The translations under genes and the position numbers were made by a program. A stretch of 64,000 nt of DNA from Escherichia phage vB_EcoM_LNA2. Each line of letters begins with the position of its first letter. Within the stretch, counting starts at the first letter, position 1. Positions 14,074-52,761 of this stretch are shown here, in pieces. The DNA lies in sequence record MZ311865.1. One strand, 5' to 3'. Under the pieces are notes generated by a model. The model was given only the letters and a program-made list of their open reading frames with translations. It did not search any database and was not told where the DNA came from.

Positions 14074-15174
14074 TTACGCTGTGAAGATTTTATCCCACAT
14101 CGCAACAACTGCATCTCGATTATACTTCTTCCATACTGCTTCAGCACGTTTAACTCGAGCTTCGTATGTGTCAGTGAATTCTAATACAGCTTTTGTGTAA
14201 AGCGCAACTACTTCTTTCTTAGGAGTAGAGGAATCAATTTCTACACGCACAGTATCTGGGTCGTATTCGAATGTCGCATGAGGATAATCCTTAAAAACTA
14301 ACTGGATTACAGGGACACCTTTAGAGATGGCTTCAATAGAACTATTCTCTACCGTACCTGTGTCAGGACACGTATTAATAAGTGCTTTAGCTGTTTTAAG
14401 ACGTTCCATAATTTCACTGTGTGGAGCATCAATAATAACAGGATATTTAGCCGGTGGCGCCCATTTACTAGGACAGTATCCTACACCATTTTCGCCTAGT
14501 GCTTTAATCGCTTCAAGAGCAACATCAGTACGACGCATTTTAGTGTCATAACGTTGTGCACTAATAATCAGATCCGTCGCCGGAAGAACTTCTGGCTTTT
14601 CAGTCAAACAAATAACCGGATAATCTTCGGCTTCAAACAACGGATTTGCTCGCCAATAATCATAATCAATTTTGTCAGTCAGACCTGAAGTCATATAACA
14701 ATATTTGCGTTCAAATTCACGGAAGGCTTTAGTAGGAGCATAGCTCTTCCCACCATTCTTATGAATTTGAATAGTCTGGTCCCAAATTTGAACAATGCCA
14801 CGAGATACTGGTTCAAATGGTGTTGCCATAAAATTCTTATGAACTTTAGAGAGACCTGCGTCTTTAATTGCCTGAACGGTTAGTTTAGTCGGTTCCATAG
14901 TAACAACAAAATCGTATTCATGGATGCCGGCTAGTTCAACAATCTTACGAGCCATAGTATAACTCATACCTAGACTGAATTTTGTCAGATGACCAACAGG
15001 ATGATGATTAACTTTCCAATCACCAAATGTGTCATTATCAAAACCGATATAATCAATATCAGCACCGATGGACACAAGATATTTCAACACGTTCAAATGA
15101 ACCGCTTCAAGACCACCTTGTACACGTTCTGGGTTAAATGGGACTGCACGAGATGGGATAAACATAACTTTCAT
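14074..15174 (-). CDS. Glycosyltransferase-like protein (GT-B type motif), candidate DNA sugar transferase
   Basis: 366 aa; C-terminal ...DTGTVENSSIEAISKGVPVIQL... resembles GT-B E..EA..G.PVI motif; sits where T4 has gene 60/mobA. Confidence 0.55.
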   Translation of the reverse strand: MKVMFIPSRAVPFNPERVQGGLEAVHLNVLKYLVSIGADIDYIGFDNDTFGDWKVNHHPVGHLTKFSLGMSYTMARKIVELAGIHEYDFVVTMEPTKLTVQAIKDAGLSKVHKNFMATPFEPVSRGIVQIWDQTIQIHKNGGKSYAPTKAFREFERKYCYMTSGLTDKIDYDYWRANPLFEAEDYPVICLTEKPEVLPATDLIISAQRYDTKMRRTDVALEAIKALGENGVGYCPSKWAPPAKYPVIIDAPHSEIMERLKTAKALINTCPDTGTVENSSIEAISKGVPVIQLVFKDYPHATFEYDPDTVRVEIDSSTPKKEVVALYTKAVLEFTDTYEARVKRAEAVWKKYNRDAVVAMWDKIFTA

Positions 15175-15200
15175 AATTAAGCCTTATTAAAATTAAAATG

Positions 15201-15218
15201 AAGCTCCCGAAGGAGCTT
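15201..15218 (-). terminator. Hairpin terminator immediately after gene 39
   Basis: AAGCUCC-UUCG-GGAGCUU overlapping stop codon; U-rich tail. Confidence 0.5.
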
Positions 15219-17034: not shown

Positions 17035-17085
17035 GTTGTCTCCTCGTTATGAAGGTATTCTATCATCCGAAATCTAAAGCAAAAA

Positions 17086-17097
17086 GGGCCGAAGCCC
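17086..17097 (-). terminator. Intrinsic terminator after ORF 17098..17541
   Basis: GGGC-UUCG-GCCC plus UUUUUGCUUU. Confidence 0.55.
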
Positions 17098-17541
17098 TTA
17101 TTTAAATTTAATTTTCTGAAGTGCATCAATTGCAGCTAAACGCCCTTGTTCACTTTTAACTGTAATGACCACATCGCCTGATACGATCACCGAACCATCA
17201 ACAAATTCTATAGAGCCTTTTTTGAAATCGACAGCTGTATCTGGTTCCGGAACTTCTTCAAAGAATTTAAATTCTGCACCATAAATCAGAATATCACCTT
17301 GCATACTAATGATTGTACGTCTAGGTCCATCGGTTTCAGCGGCAATCATTGAAACACCATAACCAATCATCTCTTCTACAATAAAATCTCTTGATAATAA
17401 AACTGTATGCAGAGTAGTGTTAAGACGTTTACCAGTTGTATTAAGAATTCTCAAGAAATTATCTTCTTGACCTTTGATAATACGATATTTCTTACCAACT
17501 TCAAAACCTTTAAAACCTTTAAAAGCCGTATTAAAAGCCAT
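17098..17541 (-). CDS. Hypothetical protein, 147 aa
   Basis: ORF track; followed by UUCG terminator. Confidence 0.5.
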   Translation of the reverse strand: MAFNTAFKGFKGFEVGKKYRIIKGQEDNFLRILNTTGKRLNTTLHTVLLSRDFIVEEMIGYGVSMIAAETDGPRRTIISMQGDILIYGAEFKFFEEVPEPDTAVDFKKGSIEFVDGSVIVSGDVVITVKSEQGRLAAIDALQKIKFK

Positions 17542-35270: not shown

Positions 35271-35819
35271 TTAACGAGCCCATTTGATAATTTCTGTAAT
35301 CAAATTATTACGTTCGCTTGCATTAAATCCTATAACTTTGTTAGCACCATCATGATTAAGTAATTGATACGTTTGGATTTCGTTATGAATTGCAAACTCT
35401 TCAAAATATGAAATGACTGTATTAAAACCAAATGAAGACAAAGTAATAAGGTCGTCTTCAAAACTTTCAGTCATTTCGTTACGTGTTAAAATAATTGTGA
35501 ACACATCATGGTTTTGGCAAAGACGAACATAGTCCTGTTCATAAACGTCAAGAACCGAGTCCGCATCTTGTCGAATACGTCCGTAAACCCAGTTACTAAT
35601 ATATCCACGGTCTAATAGATAAATCTTAGTAGGGTCTAAATAATTCAACATCGTTTCGAAACAGCCAACTTCATTTCGAGACTTAACATCGAAACGTCCA
35701 TCAACTGTTCGTTTAGGGAAATCAATCTTTACATATCTTTCACTAATTTCCATTATGTCATTAATGAAAGTTGTTTTACCAGCATTATCTGGGCCATCTA
35801 CTAAAATAATTTTAGCCAT
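35271..35819 (-). CDS. P-loop kinase (nucleotide/nucleoside kinase-like)
   Basis: 182 aa; Walker A VDGPDNAGKTT; LLDRGYIS resembles dNK-type motif. Confidence 0.6.
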   Translation of the reverse strand: MAKIILVDGPDNAGKTTFINDIMEISERYVKIDFPKRTVDGRFDVKSRNEVGCFETMLNYLDPTKIYLLDRGYISNWVYGRIRQDADSVLDVYEQDYVRLCQNHDVFTIILTRNEMTESFEDDLITLSSFGFNTVISYFEEFAIHNEIQTYQLLNHDGANKVIGFNASERNNLITEIIKWAR

Positions 35820-35820
35820 T

Positions 35821-36720
35821 TTATTCCTCGATTACGACATCTTCATATTTAGGTATATTATACGGTGAAGAAATTAAAGCGTTAAAGTAGATGAACTCAC
35901 CAAGACCTGGATGGAATACTTCTTCAGGATTTTCGAAATATTGAATTTTCGGACGTCCTTTAAGAATTTGATAGTACTCAGTTTTAGTTGGTTTAAAAAT
36001 TCGAATCAACGCTTCTTCAGGATACTTATTTCTGTCGAAGCTATTATTTGGATCGGTTATATAAAGCGGTTGACCTAATTGAATTGCGCATTCAACAACT
36101 TGTTCAAAACGATAGCATGGGTCACTAATTCGAAATGGATGAAAAATACCATCTAGATGAATAGGAGCCAAATCACCTACAAGACGCTGCATGATGGAAG
36201 GACGTATAACTTTCTGCGTTACGATAATCTTATTACCATCTGCACCAGCGTTAACCAGCACTTCTTTTTGACGTTCATTCAACACAGTAGTTTGAAGTGA
36301 ACGATTAACCGACAACATATCGGTTTTTAAGAATTCGTCAATATAAAAACGTGGTTTATTAGGGTCTGCAGTGATATTGAAATTGAATTCCGCATCAAAA
36401 GCGCCGTCATATCCAGTGATATCTGTGATTAGAAAATCACAGTCATAATAAGCAATTAATGAATCAACCACAAATTCATTTTCAGACCAGAAATATTTAC
36501 GAGTGTTATACGCGTTATCTTTATACCATAATGGAACAAACTTAAATTCTGGAAAAAGACGTTCGCATTCTTTAATATCAGATGCATTACGTGGATATGT
36601 AATCACATCACCCGGATTAGCACGGTGCAAATGAAGTTGGAAGTTGCCATCCTTAAGGATAGCATACTGTCCAGTTTCATAAGACCGCATACTCAAGATA
36701 GGTACGCGGAAAATAGCCAT
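35821..36720 (-). CDS. Hypothetical protein, 299 aa (occupies T4 beta-gt position)
   Basis: ORF track; no recognised motif; TAATG-coupled to TS-like gene. Confidence 0.5.
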   Translation of the reverse strand: MAIFRVPILSMRSYETGQYAILKDGNFQLHLHRANPGDVITYPRNASDIKECERLFPEFKFVPLWYKDNAYNTRKYFWSENEFVVDSLIAYYDCDFLITDITGYDGAFDAEFNFNITADPNKPRFYIDEFLKTDMLSVNRSLQTTVLNERQKEVLVNAGADGNKIIVTQKVIRPSIMQRLVGDLAPIHLDGIFHPFRISDPCYRFEQVVECAIQLGQPLYITDPNNSFDRNKYPEEALIRIFKPTKTEYYQILKGRPKIQYFENPEEVFHPGLGEFIYFNALISSPYNIPKYEDVVIEE

Positions 36721-37436
36721 TAGTCAAGGAATCCTTTAACATAATCAAAATCACGTTCAAACACATGGGCACTTACCATGGTATGAGTATAATCACCAAC
36801 TTCTACACCACATTCTTTAGCGATATAATGAAGTAATTTTCCTTGGAGATAAAAATCCAACTGCATAACAACAGCACAGTTCTGAGAACGCATATGACAG
36901 TGGGTATAAAGCTTACCATCACGAATATAATAAGTCACTGAGTCAGTACATGGATATTCAAGTGTTTCGTCCGAATCAAGCAAAGCCTGATCAGAACTTT
37001 CTAGAATTTGGAACACAACTCTTCGAGAGTTAGGCTTCTCTTTAAGTTCTTTTAGAAGAGCTGGTAATTGGGCCGCAATGCGAGGACCATAGAAAGTGTT
37101 GAAGTTCGCCGGCAAAACATCTGATTTTGGTTTAGAAATAAATTTAGCGACATTAGGATATGCCTTAAACGCTTCTTCTGCGTTGGTACCACCAGAAATC
37201 ATAAACTTCCAGAAGTCTTCGGCATATTCATAAGAGATGCGGTTAATACGTGGGTCGGTCATTTTGAATGATGATGGAGTGTCAACAACTACTGTCATAG
37301 ACCCAATTTCATTACAACGTCCAATACGAGAATCAGTTACGAATTCCGGGTTTTCTAAAATTTCACGATTGACAGCTTTAAATGCGGATTGAAAATCTGC
37401 GGCTTTAATATATTTCATTGTGTTATGTTTTCCCAT
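36720..37436 (-). CDS. Thymidylate-synthase-family pyrimidine hydroxymethylase-like enzyme (gene 42 position, divergent)
   Basis: 238 aa; NSRRVVFQ, YPCTDSVTYY and MRSQN resemble recalled T4 gp42 DSRRGIMIY, FMCTNTVQY, MRSND, but overall divergent. Confidence 0.65.
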   Translation of the reverse strand: MGKHNTMKYIKAADFQSAFKAVNREILENPEFVTDSRIGRCNEIGSMTVVVDTPSSFKMTDPRINRISYEYAEDFWKFMISGGTNAEEAFKAYPNVAKFISKPKSDVLPANFNTFYGPRIAAQLPALLKELKEKPNSRRVVFQILESSDQALLDSDETLEYPCTDSVTYYIRDGKLYTHCHMRSQNCAVVMQLDFYLQGKLLHYIAKECGVEVGDYTHTMVSAHVFERDFDYVKGFLD

Positions 37437-37714
37437 GTTTACCTCAATACAATTTATTATATACTCAATTCATAAAGCTTATTTGAATTTCTTAGCGATG
37501 TTGATATAACGTAAAGCTTCAGCATCGATATTTCCAAGAACACTATGAAGAAATGCATCAGCGTAGTATTACAGTTGAACAGGTTCTTTAATCACTTTAG
37601 CCGCTTTAGTTTCAAACAGGCCCATCAGGGCCTTTTTAAGAATTTGTTCGTTAGTGTTCAGTTTCGTAGTCAAAATCTCTTCATTAAGTTGGTGGTTAAA
37701 AGTTTTTCTAGAAA

Positions 37715-38875
37715 TCATTCCGGGTACCTCAAAGCGTCATCAGAGTTAGTTATATCAATAATAGATATAGAGTTTTCTGATAACCCATTTTTAGATAACT
37801 GACGTTTATAATATCTTTCACAATATGTACACGTTGACCCACAGATTTCATTAGCACAATCGAAATCTGGATGTCTGAACCACCTTTTTTCTAAAAAGCC
37901 ATCTAACAAAGAGGTTTCAATATTTACTGTATGTGAAAACTCAGTTTCGTTTTCAAGAGTGAAAATAGTCTCTAAAGGCTTCCACAGTTCTAACAAATTA
38001 CCTTCAAACTTTTCAGAAGCGTATGCTTCAAGAACTTTCAAAATGTAGTCTGTGCTACCTGTACGTCCTGAAACTTTGAATTGAGTGATACCAATATCAT
38101 TATAAAGTTTCAAATCTTGAGGACGAACAAAACGAGTTCTCAACCAGTTAAATGGGTCTGTATCACGAGCTTTAATACAGTGCTGCATAGGATATCCGTT
38201 TAAGGATTTAGCATCATCAGCTGTAACATCAGTACTATGGAAAATATAGCAAGAGTCACGATAGCTACAATGTGTTGTATACCCTTTACCAGCATTAGAA
38301 CAGAACTCATTTACAAGAACTTCAAATATTATATTGTTCTTATTACAAAACTCTGCTGCACGCTTCAGGAAAGAAACTGAACGGTTCTTATGAATTCCAC
38401 AGCAGACCTTTTTGATATTATATTGGTCGTGCAAGTATTTGATTTGAGTTACAGCATCGACATGTAGAATTGTTGAAACTTCAATCTCAATGTCTTTATT
38501 GACTTCACGAACAATTTCCATAACAACAGGGTTAGCGATAGTAATACGCCATACGCCTATTGACCAAAGATACTGAACATAATCCTGAATAGCTTTCTTC
38601 TTCCACTCAACTAGTTCTCTTTTTGAACCAGGATTTATCGTGTTGAGTGTATAGTTAAAGCAAATACCTAATTCGTTACAACGTTTAACGTAATCTTCTA
38701 ACATCTTTTTGTCAACGTCAGGAAGCCTAAAATCAGGTCTGGCTGCTACAAAAGCCATTTCTCTTGTAGAGCCGTATACTTCGTTTATCAAGCTATTAGG
38801 ATAAGTTTTATTGAGCTCTACGATTTTATCAAGAAGAGCTAAATCAAAATTCGTTCCGATTTTAAAAGTATTCAT
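37715..38875 (-). CDS. Hypothetical enzyme with C-terminal Cys cluster, 386 aa
   Basis: ORF track; DCANEICGSTCTYCE cluster; no confident family. Confidence 0.5.
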   Translation of the reverse strand: MNTFKIGTNFDLALLDKIVELNKTYPNSLINEVYGSTREMAFVAARPDFRLPDVDKKMLEDYVKRCNELGICFNYTLNTINPGSKRELVEWKKKAIQDYVQYLWSIGVWRITIANPVVMEIVREVNKDIEIEVSTILHVDAVTQIKYLHDQYNIKKVCCGIHKNRSVSFLKRAAEFCNKNNIIFEVLVNEFCSNAGKGYTTHCSYRDSCYIFHSTDVTADDAKSLNGYPMQHCIKARDTDPFNWLRTRFVRPQDLKLYNDIGITQFKVSGRTGSTDYILKVLEAYASEKFEGNLLELWKPLETIFTLENETEFSHTVNIETSLLDGFLEKRWFRHPDFDCANEICGSTCTYCERYYKRQLSKNGLSENSISIIDITNSDDALRYPE

Positions 38876-38933: not shown

Positions 38934-39335
38934 TTATAGATTCGGTTTATACGATTTAAATGTTTCGAATTCGCCTTTATTCATAAGAGCTTTGAATTCG
39001 TCAGGACGCATAGCTTTGTCGTCGATAATCCAATCATATACTGGTTTATGTGTTAGCAAATTATGGTACTTCAAGCCAATGTTTGCCAAGTTCTGAATCA
39101 GACTTGGGAGAATGTCAATTGCTATACGACCAGGACCTACTGACTTCATACCGCGAGCAGTGTAAAGCGTTATGGTATGCCCTGCATCATACAGAGCATT
39201 AATGGCAGACACCATTTCGGTGTCTGGTTTGAAGTTCACGTAATCACGATTGTTATTCCATTCCGTGATGCAATCATCGACATCAAAACAAAGATTAAGC
39301 ATGTTTTCTACACGGTGCATTAGATTCGTTCCCAT
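38934..39335 (-). CDS. HAD-superfamily phosphatase (KdsC/GmhB-like small phosphatase)
   Basis: 133 aa; motif I FDVDDCIT, motif II LYTAR, later K and IIDD. Confidence 0.6.
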   Translation of the reverse strand: MGTNLMHRVENMLNLCFDVDDCITEWNNNRDYVNFKPDTEMVSAINALYDAGHTITLYTARGMKSVGPGRIAIDILPSLIQNLANIGLKYHNLLTHKPVYDWIIDDKAMRPDEFKALMNKGEFETFKSYKPNL

Positions 39336-41005
39336 TGATGAGTGATATCGCCACCGATTGGACGATAGGAAACACCAGTTTCTTTATCAGTTAGTACCCA
39401 TTTACCAGGATTTTTTGTAATCAGAGTAGCCGTTACAGGTTCTGCTACGTCATAACTAATAGAGCCGTCTTGAAGTACACGGCCCATATTACGTAATTGC
39501 TTAGTCAGAAGTTCCATACCTTTATAATATGCGGCTACCGCTTTAAGTGGATTATTCTTGAAATAACCACCTAATGCAATCCAGATAATTGCTACAGCCA
39601 AATGATGATACTCGTTAAACGAACTCATCTTTCCATATTTGTAAACTAGTGGATTGATGTTAATAGTCACATTACAAGTTGTTTCGTCAATAGTAAACTG
39701 TCCCCAGGTCGGATTAGCGTTGAATTCATCATAACCTGAAACAGCATAAAGCACTTTAGCTTCATCGTACAATTTTGGCCCGTAAATCTTGGTTTCACCA
39801 AAATATCCACGAGGGTCGATAAACTTGACTTCGCCGTTATCAGTAATCATAGTATTACTGAAGTTCGGGTCGCCGTGAATAACAGAGTACTGTCCCTGAG
39901 AACGGTTATGATAACGAATAAGGTGTTCTAAAGCTTGTTTCAGCATTGGCTTCAGACGTCCAATCTTAGTGTAGTTCACATGTGTGATTTTACCAAATGA
40001 ATCAATCAATGGTTGAATGCTTTCACAACGATCAATAACTTTCGTATAGAATTCTTTAGTGAAATCACGACGAACAGTTTCAGGACTTACAAAATAAGTG
40101 TCTGTGCTGAATTTCAGTGCATCTAAAATTGCACCAACAATTTGTGGACGAGCAAGACTTGATTTGGATTTAATATATTCAAATGCCGGCTTACCTTTAA
40201 TGCGTTCCATTTCAAAGTTATTTTCATTAACAGAAACTAACTGAGGGACTGAATCTGATTTCACTTTAAGATACCATGAAATCTCATCTTTCTGAAGAGC
40301 TCGACCCTGTTCGGTTAATGCGAATTTAGTTACAGTTTCTTCACCAATTTCAACTGCATTAAAACTACGATTAAGTTCACGAACTTCATGAGCTTTTTCA
40401 AGTTTAGGCATATCACCTAAATCAATTAGATTCATAAGCTCTGATTTATTGAATGTGCTGCCGTAAAGGAATTCTACGAAATCACGTCCTTTGCAGTATT
40501 CATGAATTTCCTCATCAGTAGAACCCATATAGAATTCCCAGTCTTTGAACTGATAAATTCCTACAACATTACCACCTGTTGAACCTACGTTAGTGATATT
40601 TTCACCGTCGAAATTATATCGACATTCGTCACCCTTAACATAGATTGCGTTAACATTCCAAGACCATGAACCAAAATCGGGAATAATATCACACCAGTTA
40701 ACAATTACGTTATGGCCGTCTAAATCTTTGTGTAATTTAGCAAGAGCATAAGCAGAACCATACGCTTCATCAACTGTACGAATAGTCACATTGAACTCTT
40801 CTTGCTCACAATAAGCTCGAACAGTTTCAGCAAATTTTGAATGAACTACTACAATAATTTCATCTGCGCCAAGGTCAGAATAAATTGTATACAAATTGCT
40901 CAGAATAGTGTCTTGTTTATAGTTAACAAGCACCTTAGGAATATGATGCGTTATTGGATACAAACGAGTTGCTAATCCAGCACCAAGAATAACAGCTTTT
41001 TTCAT
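39320..41005 (-). CDS. Bifunctional sugar-1-phosphate nucleotidyltransferase / APH-type sugar kinase
   Basis: 561 aa; N-term KAVILGAGLATRL (G-x-G-T-R nucleotidyltransferase signature); C-term VIHGDPNFSNTMI...KFIDP (APH/choline-kinase catalytic motif). Confidence 0.65.
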   Translation of the reverse strand: MKKAVILGAGLATRLYPITHHIPKVLVNYKQDTILSNLYTIYSDLGADEIIVVVHSKFAETVRAYCEQEEFNVTIRTVDEAYGSAYALAKLHKDLDGHNVIVNWCDIIPDFGSWSWNVNAIYVKGDECRYNFDGENITNVGSTGGNVVGIYQFKDWEFYMGSTDEEIHEYCKGRDFVEFLYGSTFNKSELMNLIDLGDMPKLEKAHEVRELNRSFNAVEIGEETVTKFALTEQGRALQKDEISWYLKVKSDSVPQLVSVNENNFEMERIKGKPAFEYIKSKSSLARPQIVGAILDALKFSTDTYFVSPETVRRDFTKEFYTKVIDRCESIQPLIDSFGKITHVNYTKIGRLKPMLKQALEHLIRYHNRSQGQYSVIHGDPNFSNTMITDNGEVKFIDPRGYFGETKIYGPKLYDEAKVLYAVSGYDEFNANPTWGQFTIDETTCNVTININPLVYKYGKMSSFNEYHHLAVAIIWIALGGYFKNNPLKAVAAYYKGMELLTKQLRNMGRVLQDGSISYDVAEPVTATLITKNPGKWVLTDKETGVSYRPIGGDITHQWERI

Positions 41006-41058: not shown

Positions 41059-41190
41059 TTCATACTTTGCTTGTAGTCCAATCATAATCCATCCAATTAC
41101 AAGTGTTGGAATCATTACTGGAGCCGTTAAGCTCCAGTAGATAGTCATGGCAAGCATCAATAGTAAAAGTCCTATTGTTATTGCTTTCAT
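41047..41190 (-). CDS. Small hydrophobic protein, 47 aa (not in ORF track)
   Basis: Hand translation MKAITIGLLLLMLAMTIYWSLTAPVMIPTLVIGWIMIGLQAKYECFN; ATGA overlap with SIS gene. Confidence 0.35.
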   Translation of the reverse strand: MKAITIGLLLLMLAMTIYWSLTAPVMIPTLVIGWIMIGLQAKYECFN

Positions 41191-41822
41191 TGTTCGCCTC
41201 GTAACATGGCACCTAGTGCACCGCCTGGATGGAACTTAAGGAAGTCATTAGAGGTAAATCCACGTTCAGACGAAAGGTTGATAGCAAACGTATCGATAAG
41301 CGCTAACAACAATGTAGTGGACATAGTCGGAGCCAGAGAATTCTCATCAACCTCTACCGCGATGCCTGTACAGAAAGAGTAATCAAAAAGGGCTTCATTT
41401 TCTTGTGGAATGTCTGGGTTACAATGCAACAGAATCTGTTTGACGTTCGGTCGAATCATTTTAAGATGCTTAGCCACGCCTATCATTTCTTCAGTTTTAC
41501 CAGAACGACTAATATGAATCAACACATCATTAGGCGCAATGAATCCTGCATCACCGTGAGAATAATGCCCAGTGTTCAAGTACATACTCGGGATACCGAG
41601 TGAAGCAAATGTCTCAGAAGCTTTAGTTGCAATATTAGCATTCTTACCAACACCTGTAATAATTACTCGGCTTTCATAATTACTAAGTCCCGGGCGTCGA
41701 AGAGTTTCTAGAATAGCATTATAACGAGCAGGGTTTTGACTAATTACTTTGGCCATAGCGGCCAAAGAAGAAGCTTGTTTTATGATTGCGTCAATAGCGA
41801 TAGTAATAGGAGTAGTTTTCAT
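41187..41822 (-). CDS. SIS-domain sugar-phosphate isomerase, KdsD/GutQ arabinose-5-phosphate isomerase-like (no CBS domains)
   Basis: 211 aa; GVGKN...TFASLGIPS...HGD.G...ISRSGKTEE...LAPTMSTT...FHPGGALG parallels E. coli KdsD SIS domain as I recall it. Confidence 0.65.
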   Translation of the reverse strand: MKTTPITIAIDAIIKQASSLAAMAKVISQNPARYNAILETLRRPGLSNYESRVIITGVGKNANIATKASETFASLGIPSMYLNTGHYSHGDAGFIAPNDVLIHISRSGKTEEMIGVAKHLKMIRPNVKQILLHCNPDIPQENEALFDYSFCTGIAVEVDENSLAPTMSTTLLLALIDTFAINLSSERGFTSNDFLKFHPGGALGAMLRGEQ

Positions 41823-49955: not shown

Positions 49956-50199
49956 TATACGCATCCTCAATACACGCTTCAGCCATTTTAAGAATAGATC
50001 CAGGAGTATCGTTGTCCATTATATTAAAGCTAAATTCAATAGCCCAGTCGGTGCAGACATGAACTGCTTTAACTTCATTGCCTTCAACGCGTAATGGCTC
50101 AATCCAATACTTGATAGTGTTCTCGAATCCATCATCATCTTTAACGTCCATTTCAACTTCAAGCCCGAGCCCAGCATTATTAAATTCATCTAAAGTCAT
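49942..50199 (-). CDS. Hypothetical acidic protein, 85 aa
   Basis: ORF track; ATGA-coupled to gene 47. Confidence 0.45.
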   Translation of the reverse strand: MTLDEFNNAGLGLEVEMDVKDDDGFENTIKYWIEPLRVEGNEVKAVHVCTDWAIEFSFNIMDNDTPGSILKMAEACIEDAYNDED

Positions 50200-51215
50200 T
50201 GTGTTGCCTCAATATAAAGTTCGTTGGAATATTTGACCAGCGCTTCTCTGTCTTCGTCTGAGATATCTGGAATCGCGTCAATATATTCTTTAATGATATC
50301 TTGAAGTGATTTAATCTCGATTTCCTGGTCGTCATCAGATTCAACACTGTTATCAACTTTAGAAACCATACGAAGAGAGTGAACTACTTTTTCAAGTTCA
50401 GATTCAAACTTAGTCAACTCTGAATCAATTTCTGATACTATAACACGTACGGCTAGATTAGTATAATCAGAATAATTGATTTTGCCTTTAAACGGATAAG
50501 TGATTCGTCTATGCCATGTTGTTTCATTAGGAATAAATTCCATACGTTCAACATCAGTGTCAAATACCCAGAATCCGCGCGGGTCATTCTCATCACCTGC
50601 AGTAAGGGTCCATGGTGTCCCAATATATTTGACGTTAGCAGCTTCAGAGATTGTGTGGAAGTGGCCAGACCAGACTTGTTTATAGGTCTTTAAGAAATCA
50701 GGTTCAAGCCCATGAGACTTCATTCCTTTATAGAAATAAAAGCCGTTCAGTTCCCAGTGACCAACACAATACGCAGCAGAAGAAGTCTTGATGTGCTCTA
50801 AGATTTCACCTGTATTTTCTTCACACATCCATGGAACGATATCAATCAGACATCCGTCAAAATCTACAGTAGTTGGATGCTCGTAAATAGTAAAGTTTTC
50901 AAATTGAGTCAACAATTCAGAAACAGTGTTAGGTGTTATTGTATTCTTAAACGCCATGTCATGGTTTCCTATCGTGACATGAACGTGAATGCCTGCTTTA
51001 GAAATCATATCAACGATTTCACGATTGAATTCCATTGTACGATGTGTTATTGCTTTACGGACGTCAAACCAATCACCGTACTGAATCCAAGTTTTAATCC
51101 CGTGTTTCTTAGAGTATTCAATTGCTTGTCGAATACCATCACGTTGAATATCTTGAACCCATGGGTCGTCTTGTTTGACTCCGATATGGAAGTCGCCTAA
51201 GTGCAAAATTTTCAT
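50196..51215 (-). CDS. 47: Recombination nuclease subunit gp47 (SbcD/Mre11-like)
   Basis: 339 aa; MKILHLGDFHIG... phosphoesterase motifs (GNHD, GHWE). Confidence 0.9.
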   Translation of the reverse strand: MKILHLGDFHIGVKQDDPWVQDIQRDGIRQAIEYSKKHGIKTWIQYGDWFDVRKAITHRTMEFNREIVDMISKAGIHVHVTIGNHDMAFKNTITPNTVSELLTQFENFTIYEHPTTVDFDGCLIDIVPWMCEENTGEILEHIKTSSAAYCVGHWELNGFYFYKGMKSHGLEPDFLKTYKQVWSGHFHTISEAANVKYIGTPWTLTAGDENDPRGFWVFDTDVERMEFIPNETTWHRRITYPFKGKINYSDYTNLAVRVIVSEIDSELTKFESELEKVVHSLRMVSKVDNSVESDDDQEIEIKSLQDIIKEYIDAIPDISDEDREALVKYSNELYIEATQ

Positions 51216-52004: not shown

Positions 52005-52214
52005 TTATCTCATTAAATTAAAATAAAAACGTCCATCCTCTTCAATACAGAACTCATATTCAACTGGAGTCCCGTTTATCGAAAATGACACGTCATGTGG
52101 GTTCAAAGGGTCGATGTCAAAATTAATTTTAAATTCACGACCCAACAGTTTTACCAAATAAGGGATTGCTTCGTCAAAAGGTTCTTCTAAGTAGTTAGAG
52201 ATGTCAATTGTCAT
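52005..52214 (-). CDS. Hypothetical protein, ~69 aa
   Basis: ORF track 52005..52298 overlaps gp55; shortened to an internal ATG. Confidence 0.35.
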
Positions 52215-52761
52215 CCTCATATAAAAAATCCAAACTAGGCGAATCGCTAACAACTTCCTTCTTTTCAGCCCCAGGAGCTTTATAAGCGGATTCTTCATAA
52301 TGCGTCATTTTATCGTAGATGTCTTGAATAAACGTTTCATCTACCAACGCTACCATATCATCGTCATGACTGTCGTAGACATTATGAACGAAGTAACTAT
52401 ATTTCTTTGCAACTTCCTTACGTTCTTTTTTGATACGTTGGACAAAAGCATTAAAACAAGCTCGAGTTATGTATGCATGTGGGTTATTGTACTTAGTTTC
52501 GTCGAAATTATGAAGTCCCTTAATAGAGGCTTCAATCCCATCTGCAATCATCTCCTGCTTCCAAGACTGGGTATATCCTGAAAAGTTGAAACGTTTGGAC
52601 AGGCCTTCGGCGATAAGCATAATTGCTAAACCGATGGTATCATTCTGACGAATAATTTTGTTTGGGTCTTTATTATTTAAGAGCTCCTTTTTCCACTCGA
52701 TTATAGCGGCGAGAAGCTCTTTATTATTCACATAGTTATTTTTAGGTTTTTGTTCAGTCAT
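52204..52761 (-). CDS. 55: Late-transcription sigma factor gp55
   Basis: 185 aa; ...[45 protein letters not shown]... matches recalled T4 gp55. Confidence 0.9.

Follow-up and report, generated by a model that had tools for sequence, protein, structure and literature searches.

A Conserved Gene between rIIA.1 and Gene 39

The window analyzed here is a 64,000-nucleotide (64-kb) stretch of Escherichia phage vB_EcoM_LNA2 (MZ311865.1) and represents an RB69-like (Mosigvirus) genome. On its reverse strand it carries an ORF of 366 codons with an ATG start, which lies, as a first-pass annotation of this DNA had placed it, between rIIA.1 and gene 39 (Table 1). The downstream neighbor is rIIA.1 (Pfam T4_RIIA1, E 2e-30), and the upstream neighbor, gene 39, encodes an unsplit topoisomerase II large subunit of 605 aa (GyrB/HATPase/TOPRIM_C). 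The corresponding interval of T4 is occupied by genes 60, 60.1, and mobA, which bears out the description of the locus as the T4 60/mobA position. GC-rich hairpins with UUCG-type tetraloops occur at gene ends in this part of the window, including AAGGGC-TTCG-GCCCTT at 17084–17099 in addition to the intercistronic stem-loop listed in Table 1, and terminator-like sites are enriched between 13.7 and 17.3 kb (7 found vs. 2.0 expected).

Table 1. Features of the glycosyltransferase locus and of the sugar-nucleotide island in the window
Feature	Position	Strand	Remarks
366-aa GT-B (GT4-like) UDP-sugar glycosyltransferase, as modeled	14074..15174	-	Ortholog of RB69 ORF003c/gp3 and of the phage HY126 glycosyltransferase; proposed second (chain-extending) DNA arabinofuranosyltransferase
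Shine-Dalgarno sequence AAGG	15182..15185	-	7 nt 5′ of the ATG at 15174; read directly from the sequence
Stem-loop AAGCTCC-TTCG-GGAGCTT (UUCG loop)	15201..15218	-	Overlaps the gene 39 stop codon; intercistronic, just upstream of the glycosyltransferase gene
182-aa ORF	35271..35819	-	Position of RB69 gp45 and DLP3 gp78 (nucleotide kinase-like); no Pfam match of its own
299-aa ORF, proposed first arabinosyltransferase (alpha-Araf onto O5 of 5-hydroxycytosine)	35821..36720	-	T4 beta-gt position; homolog of RB69 gp46:47, DLP3 gp79, and Thanatos TH1_063
Thymidylate-synthase-like protein, predicted 5-hydroxy-dCMP synthase	36720..37436	-	MRSQNC (D169N) signature (PMC13326640); replaces T4 gp42
U32-family protein	37715..38875	-	Counterpart of RB69 gp50
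HAD-type phosphatase (capsule biosynthesis phosphatase subfamily)	38934..39335	-	Counterpart of AfhF/RB69 gp51 (Araf-1,5-P2 to Araf-1-P)
561-aa bifunctional nucleotidyltransferase and kinase	39320..41005	-	Counterpart of AfhE/RB69 gp52:53; makes UDP-arabinofuranose
SIS-domain arabinose-5-phosphate isomerase	41187..41822	-	Counterpart of RB69 gp55

Codon changes show that the ORF is a real gene under purifying selection. Relative to RB69 there are 26 synonymous and 4 nonsynonymous changes, and relative to Bas47 there are 50 and 9, respectively, far below the 78% nonsynonymous changes expected if changes were random. The protein is kept at 95–100% identity across about 155 Mosigvirus records, and megablast found the gene at 90–99% identity in 163 phage records, most of which label it “hypothetical protein.” The comparison with RB69-like genomes that the first-pass annotation had called for was especially close: RB69 ORF003c/gp3 (NP_861693) is likewise flanked by rIIA.1 and gene 39, is equal in length, and is identical at 362/366 residues, with E16D, T191N, V231A, and T327I as the only substitutions. 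Judged by its sequence, the window ORF is the RB69 gp3 gene in a different isolate.

One phage record departs from this arrangement. The gene of Shigella phage JK45 appears split, and we considered an intron or another disruption, which we ruled out: an intact copy is followed by a partial tandem duplicate. The duplicate is a 411-bp ORF downstream of the intact copy (MK962757.1, 2520–2930) in which the first five codons of rIIA.1 (MRTYN) are fused to the last 131 glycosyltransferase residues. It may have arisen by a tandem duplication of about 500 bp, or it is possibly an assembly artifact.

Structural Evidence for a GT-B-Fold Glycosyltransferase

Structure, rather than sequence libraries, identifies the protein. 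The first-pass annotation took it for a glycosyltransferase from a C-terminal GT-B-like motif, TGTVENSSIEAISKGVPVIQL (residues 272–292). The motif alone is not statistically diagnostic of GT-B, since the protein has no match in Pfam even at E ≤ 10 or in NCBIfam even at E ≤ 1; its PHROGs group, PHROG 8302, is labeled “unknown function.” AlphaFold reached a pLDDT of 38 from the single sequence, and a pLDDT of 91.5 and a pTM of 0.88 when given an alignment of 13 sequences. The resulting model has two Rossmann-like halves, that is, the two beta/alpha/beta domains facing a cleft that define GT-B. A Foldseek search with this model placed PDB entries 9IR0 and 9IQZ at the top (TM 0.95–0.97), and the next neighbors were GT-B enzymes of the GT4 type, namely BshA, PimA, MshA, WaaG, and a tetrahydrobiopterin glucosyltransferase. 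T4 alpha-GT, which also has the GT-B fold (PDB 1Y6F), was a more distant structural match than these bacterial enzymes.

The chain solved in 9IQZ and 9IR0 is 98% identical to the window protein over its full length, from which it differs by a few substitutions. Both entries were released on 2025-07-16, the first under the title “phage HY126 glycosyltransferase” (apo) and the second under the same title “with UDP,” and they presumably stem from He et al. 2026 (Nat Chem Biol). The title of the UDP entry, together with the near-identity of the sequences, points to a nucleotide-sugar donor for the window protein. The model and the near-identical crystal structure thus give a GT-B fold even though the sequence libraries are silent, so that the earlier call of a glycosyltransferase held up and the non-glycosyltransferase fold named as its refutation did not appear. 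On this modeling, the protein is a soluble, UDP-sugar-dependent glycosyltransferase with a GT-B fold of the GT4-like kind.

Sequence comparisons place the protein at some distance from the bacterial GT4 enzymes. The alignment shows G20, R208, R214, and E281 to be invariant or almost invariant. Retaining GT4 enzymes (BshA, PimA, MshA, WaaG, and sucrose-phosphate synthase) share with the window protein an N-terminal GG loop, as well as R208 and E281 in the nucleotide-binding half. The EX7E motif of GT4 enzymes is only half kept, because its second Glu is the invariant E281 while the window protein has T272 at the first position; the phage clade instead has a conserved E276, giving E-X4-E. A Glu at the first position occurs only in a remote relative (P0015) that the family profile reached at E 1.7e-4. 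This relative alone matches the Pfam GT4 models, with 31.9 bits to Glyco_transf_4 (cutoff 28.5) and 24.5 bits, below the cutoff, to Glycos_transf_1, whereas the window protein has no significant match to either. It differs from the bacterial enzymes, moreover, in its proposed acceptor, which is glycosylated DNA.

Those bacterial neighbors act on lipids, LPS, thiols, and sugars, and an enzyme of their kind might in principle glycosylate something other than DNA, such as a host envelope glycan, a small molecule, or a protein. We find a non-DNA target scarcely credible for the window protein. Its homologs in Acinetobacter phages are embedded in a DNA-modification cluster and are active on DNA in vitro, and its family is restricted to phages with poly-arabinosylated DNA. 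The family is also narrow, since an exhaustive search yielded only 12 representatives among 1.84 billion protein clusters; a word-indexed protein search returned 5–6 relatives.

Absence of T4-Type Glucosyltransferases and Presence of an Arabinosylation Island

T4-type DNA glucosyltransferases were not detected in the window, where tblastn with T4 alpha-gt and beta-gt gave nothing better than E = 1.4 over the whole 64 kb. The alpha-gt locus was reported as empty in the first-pass annotation, and we find the same: the 988 bases between gene 47 (50196–51215) and gene 55 (52204–52761; 91% identical to T4 gp55) contain only ORFs of 42–107 aa, two of which are DUF2654 and DUF5491. Nor did the search of the window uncover the T4-like homologs at other positions that would have spoken against a role for the 366-aa protein. 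That protein itself has no sequence homology to the T4 alpha-glucosyltransferase family and neither sequence nor close structural homology to the beta-glucosyltransferase family.

The beta-gt locus was likewise thought to look empty, and here the earlier reading stands only in part. The 299-aa ORF at this position has no sequence similarity to T4 beta-gt, as claimed, but the locus is not functionally empty, as this ORF is the proposed first arabinosyltransferase. The assignment of the 299-aa protein as a glycosyltransferase rests on published structure predictions, because our own sequence and profile tests of it were negative: comparison with the 366-aa glycosyltransferase gave E = 3 by blastp and a probability of 0.2% by hhalign, and a search of its profile against PDB sequences found nothing. 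Its homolog in the Shewanella phage Thanatos, TH1_063 (48% identical), was reported to make UDP-xylose from UTP and xylose-1-phosphate in vitro (PMC12838424), an activity that is odd for a protein with a glycosyltransferase fold and is not reconciled with the transferase assignment.

The surrounding island at 35–42 kb matches the published arabinosylation pathway gene for gene. Arabinose was found in RB69 DNA by Thomas et al. in 2018 (PMC6024577). The modified base proved to be beta-D-Araf-(1->3)-alpha-D-Araf ether-linked to 5-hydroxycytosine rather than arabinosyl-hmC (PMC13326640 and the Durham Collection paper, PMC13390438), so that the linkage of the second sugar in the product is beta. 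Both mono- and di-arabinosyl forms occur in RB69-type DNA (PMC13326640, PMC13390438), and the DNA of RB69 and of NP is a mixture of the two species. A flavin- and O2-dependent ThyA homolog produces 5-hydroxy-dCMP, and UDP-Araf is made by an arabinose-5-phosphate isomerase, a bifunctional kinase/uridylyltransferase, and an HAD phosphatase (PMC13326640). Between 35.2 and 41.8 kb the window thus combines a predicted 5-hydroxy-dCMP synthase, the UDP-Araf pathway, and the 299-aa glycosyltransferase, all co-occurring with the 366-aa gene.

The identity of the base changes the acceptor to be considered. The ThyA-like protein of the window is 25% identical to T4 gp42 and reads MRSQNC where T4 reads MRSNDV, and the D169N change is a signature of 5-hydroxy-dCMP synthases (Lee et al., PMC13326640). 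The first-pass annotation had proposed an assay of transfer onto hmC-DNA, which is the wrong substrate because the RB69-type base is 5-hydroxycytosine and the gene-42 counterpart of the window carries the D169N signature. In many GenBank records the gene at the gene-42 position is still annotated as dCMP hydroxymethylase or thymidylate synthase.

Homologs of the 366-aa Protein in Arabinosylation Clusters

Full-length homologs in Acinetobacter phages connect the 366-aa protein to the island. Acinetobacter phage Konradin encodes two paralogs (gp071 and gp072) that are 40–42% identical to the window protein; the one at 42% is syntenic with DLP3 gp77 and the one at 40% with gp76, and both are contiguous with the cluster, in the same order as DLP3 gp76–gp83. 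Since two Acinetobacter-phage homologs sit inside that cluster, the earlier view that the 366-aa enzyme serves the sugar made by the island is retained. The further claim that it is the best candidate transferase needs tempering: it is one candidate, and most likely the enzyme of the second step. Homology to enzymes of the chain-extending type runs from 99% identity with RB69 gp3 and 98% with the HY126 glycosyltransferase to the two Konradin paralogs.

In vitro evidence for this family comes from DLP3. Purified gp76 and gp77 together add a third Araf to RB69 DNA from UDP-Araf, each is inactive alone, and no single DLP3 glycosyltransferase is active on 5hoC-DNA (PMC13326640). DLP3 and Mosigvirus share the protein family, the cluster partners, and probably the UDP-Araf-dependent extension of arabinosylated DNA, and they differ in arrangement and product. 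DLP3 has two paralogs inside the cluster, which jointly add the third (beta-1,5) arabinose, whereas Mosigvirus has a single enzyme about 20 kb from the cluster, which would add the second (beta-1,3) arabinose. A functional analogy, and only that, exists with the T2/T6 beta-alpha-GT/TAGT enzymes (gentiobiosyl-hmC), where a second phage glycosyltransferase extends a DNA-bound sugar; those enzymes belong to another protein family and use another sugar.

The 366-aa Enzyme Probably Adds the Second Arabinose

Two glycosyltransferases have been proposed for RB69: gp46:47, encoded beside the ThyA homolog, would act first, and gp3 is named “beta-arabinosyltransferase 2” (Lee et al. 2026, PMC13326640); gp3 is not marked there as experimentally confirmed, and we found no report of activity for RB69 gp3 or its orthologs alone in the accessible literature. 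The phylogenetic distribution of the two families is consistent with this order. The 299-aa family occurs in 348 phage records, covering phages of Escherichia, Klebsiella, Serratia, Enterobacter, Proteus, Yersinia, Acinetobacter, and Shewanella. Phage records with the 366-aa family number 211 and come from Mosigvirus and from Acinetobacter phages, the latter with two copies each. Phages that have the 299-aa gene and lack the 366-aa family include Thanatos, Serratia phages LC53 and 92A1, Klebsiella, Yersinia, and Proteus phages, and E. coli phages such as Bp7 and WG01. One “Tegunavirus” record matches the 366-aa glycosyltransferase, and the other Yersinia/Tegunavirus phages seemed to have the 299-aa glycosyltransferase only.

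Across phages, a 366-aa family copy number of 0, 1, or 2 tracks a sugar number of 1, 2, or 3, a correlative pattern that agrees with the published proposal. Thanatos, which has a 48%-identical homolog of the 299-aa protein and no homolog of the 366-aa protein, is described as mono-arabinosylated with a single glycosyltransferase (Lee et al., PMC13326640); the Thanatos paper itself describes a (deoxy)pentose of unknown configuration (PMC12838424). We also examined Thanatos TH1_065 (378 aa), which occupies the slot of the Acinetobacter glycosyltransferase paralogs, as a possible divergent relative of the 366-aa protein, and ruled it out, as it is a U32-family protein.

These sequence comparisons suggest that the 366-aa enzyme is probably the second, chain-extending transferase, yielding beta-D-Araf-(1->3)-alpha-D-Araf-O5-cytosine. 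A second-step role is suggested by the 299-aa family at the beta-gt position being the one published as the proposed first arabinosyltransferase, and it is favored because that family is the more widely spread and because copy number tracks sugar count. We infer that the 366-aa enzyme uses the first arabinose, not the base, as its acceptor and that it forms the beta-1,3 linkage.

In the mechanism that we propose, 5-hydroxycytosine would take the place of every cytosine, the ThyA-like enzyme supplying it as 5-hydroxy-dCMP, while the island would convert ribulose-5-phosphate to UDP-D-arabinofuranose. The 299-aa transferase encoded beside the ThyA homolog would place the first alpha-D-Araf on O5 of the base, and the 366-aa enzyme would most likely add the second beta-D-Araf to O3 of that sugar, acting on polymerized DNA. 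The product would be the di-arabinosylated base, the predominant form in quantified Mosigvirus virion DNA, and the extra sugar may give the DNA more shielding from nuclease-based host defenses.

The original proposal assigned the protein differently. In 2018, HMM and HHpred searches singled out ORF003c as the putative arabinosyltransferase, and it was tied to the gene 43-uvsX module (PMC6024577); the first-pass annotation argued along the same lines. If it were the primary DNA arabinosyltransferase, it would put the first arabinose directly on the modified cytosine, and the 299-aa protein would be otherwise employed, for example in sugar-nucleotide metabolism. The singular “phage HY126 glycosyltransferase” of the PDB title, like “the” arabinosyltransferase of 2018 (PMC6024577), fits a primary role, which we nevertheless hold to be unlikely. 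A primary transferase should be universal, and many arabinosylating phages lack the 366-aa family yet keep the 299-aa gene. The correspondence of copy number with sugar number also argues against it, as does the fact that the Acinetobacter enzymes gp76 and gp77 work on DNA that is already di-arabinosylated.

The joint requirement for gp76 and gp77 raises another question, namely whether the window enzyme works by itself. The one reaction of this family that has been reconstituted required two glycosyltransferases at once, so the 366-aa enzyme could function only when paired with the unrelated 299-aa transferase, or could carry out both additions itself. This would amount to a two-protein machine that acts on duplex DNA, is directed by the sugar, and does not flip bases, unlike T4 alpha-GT and beta-GT; we judge it quite unlikely. 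An obligate complex of the two proteins, or a need for the 366-aa protein in both steps, perhaps as a subunit that binds DNA or has an activating role, appears very unlikely. It would accord with the inactivity of single DLP3 glycosyltransferases on 5hoC-DNA and with the mono/di mixture in RB69 and NP DNA, which suggests incomplete or coupled reactions. However, in Mosigvirus about 20 kb separate the two genes, whose transcription contexts differ, the HY126 protein was crystallized with and without UDP under a title that names the glycosyltransferase only, and phages with the 299-aa glycosyltransferase alone still arabinosylate. Second-step addition by the 366-aa enzyme thus remains our preferred reading.

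Relation to Published Work and Significance

The gene, its identity as a glycosyltransferase, and its proposed role in arabinosylation were already known. The finding is correct and not new, because it has been in the literature since 2018, with refinement and a crystal structure of a 98% identical protein in 2025–2026. Bas46 and Bas47 show double arabinosylation (PMC12923530), and the ortholog in Bas47 bears the GenBank label “putative hmC-arabinosyltransferase.” Deletion of the arabinosyltransferase Aat makes Bas46 sensitive to a plasmid-borne defense (PMC13216743); the glycosyltransferase gene behind Aat is not stated in that paper.

The practical value of the window lies in correct annotation, as a DNA arabinofuranosyltransferase (RB69 gp3 family) in place of “hypothetical protein,” and with 5-hydroxycytosine in place of hmC as the base. 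The Mosigvirus phages form a large group of T4-like coliphages that is in therapeutic use. Arabinosylated 5-hydroxycytosine shields them from restriction enzymes, CRISPR-Cas, and some glycosylases, but type IV systems such as BrxU target them because of it. Assigning each enzyme to its sugar would allow phages to be built with defined mono- or di-arabinosylated DNA.

A Possible Oxygen-Independent Route to 5-Hydroxycytosine

The U32 gene of the island offers a side lead that looks more novel than the glycosyltransferase itself. The encoded protein is unusually conserved: its versions in this E. coli phage and in the Shewanella phage Thanatos are 81% identical, against only 48% for the adjacent 299-aa glycosyltransferase. 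The gene occurs in 221 phage records, with no Acinetobacter phage in the ten most frequent organism groups, and it was not found in the Acinetobacter phage cluster examined (Konradin); Acinetobacter is a strict aerobe. In Serratia phage LC53 and in Thanatos (TH1_065/066), a gene with a chorismate-mutase domain (Pfam CM_2, E 1.7e-11) directly follows the U32 gene.

Cellular U32 proteins (UbiU/UbiV, TrhP, and RlhA) are O2-independent hydroxylases, and prephenate is the product of chorismate mutase. Prephenate has been identified as the U32 oxygen donor (PMC10990095, PMC6599085). Because U32 hydroxylases are O2-independent and fed by prephenate while the phage ThyA-like hydroxylase needs O2, a testable idea is that the U32 protein and chorismate mutase may, by analogy, provide a prephenate-dependent, O2-independent route to 5-hydroxycytosine in anaerobically growing hosts, alongside the ThyA-like enzyme. 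Lee et al. label the U32 protein only as a “sugar or heterocycle reductase” (PMC13326640), and we found no paper in the searchable literature that links U32 to phage 5-hydroxycytosine. At the position of the LC53 and Thanatos chorismate mutase, the window has a 49-aa ORF (37569–37718, reverse strand) that overlaps the U32 stop codon (ATGA); it has no detectable similarity to chorismate mutase and could represent either a remnant or some small gene of unrelated origin.
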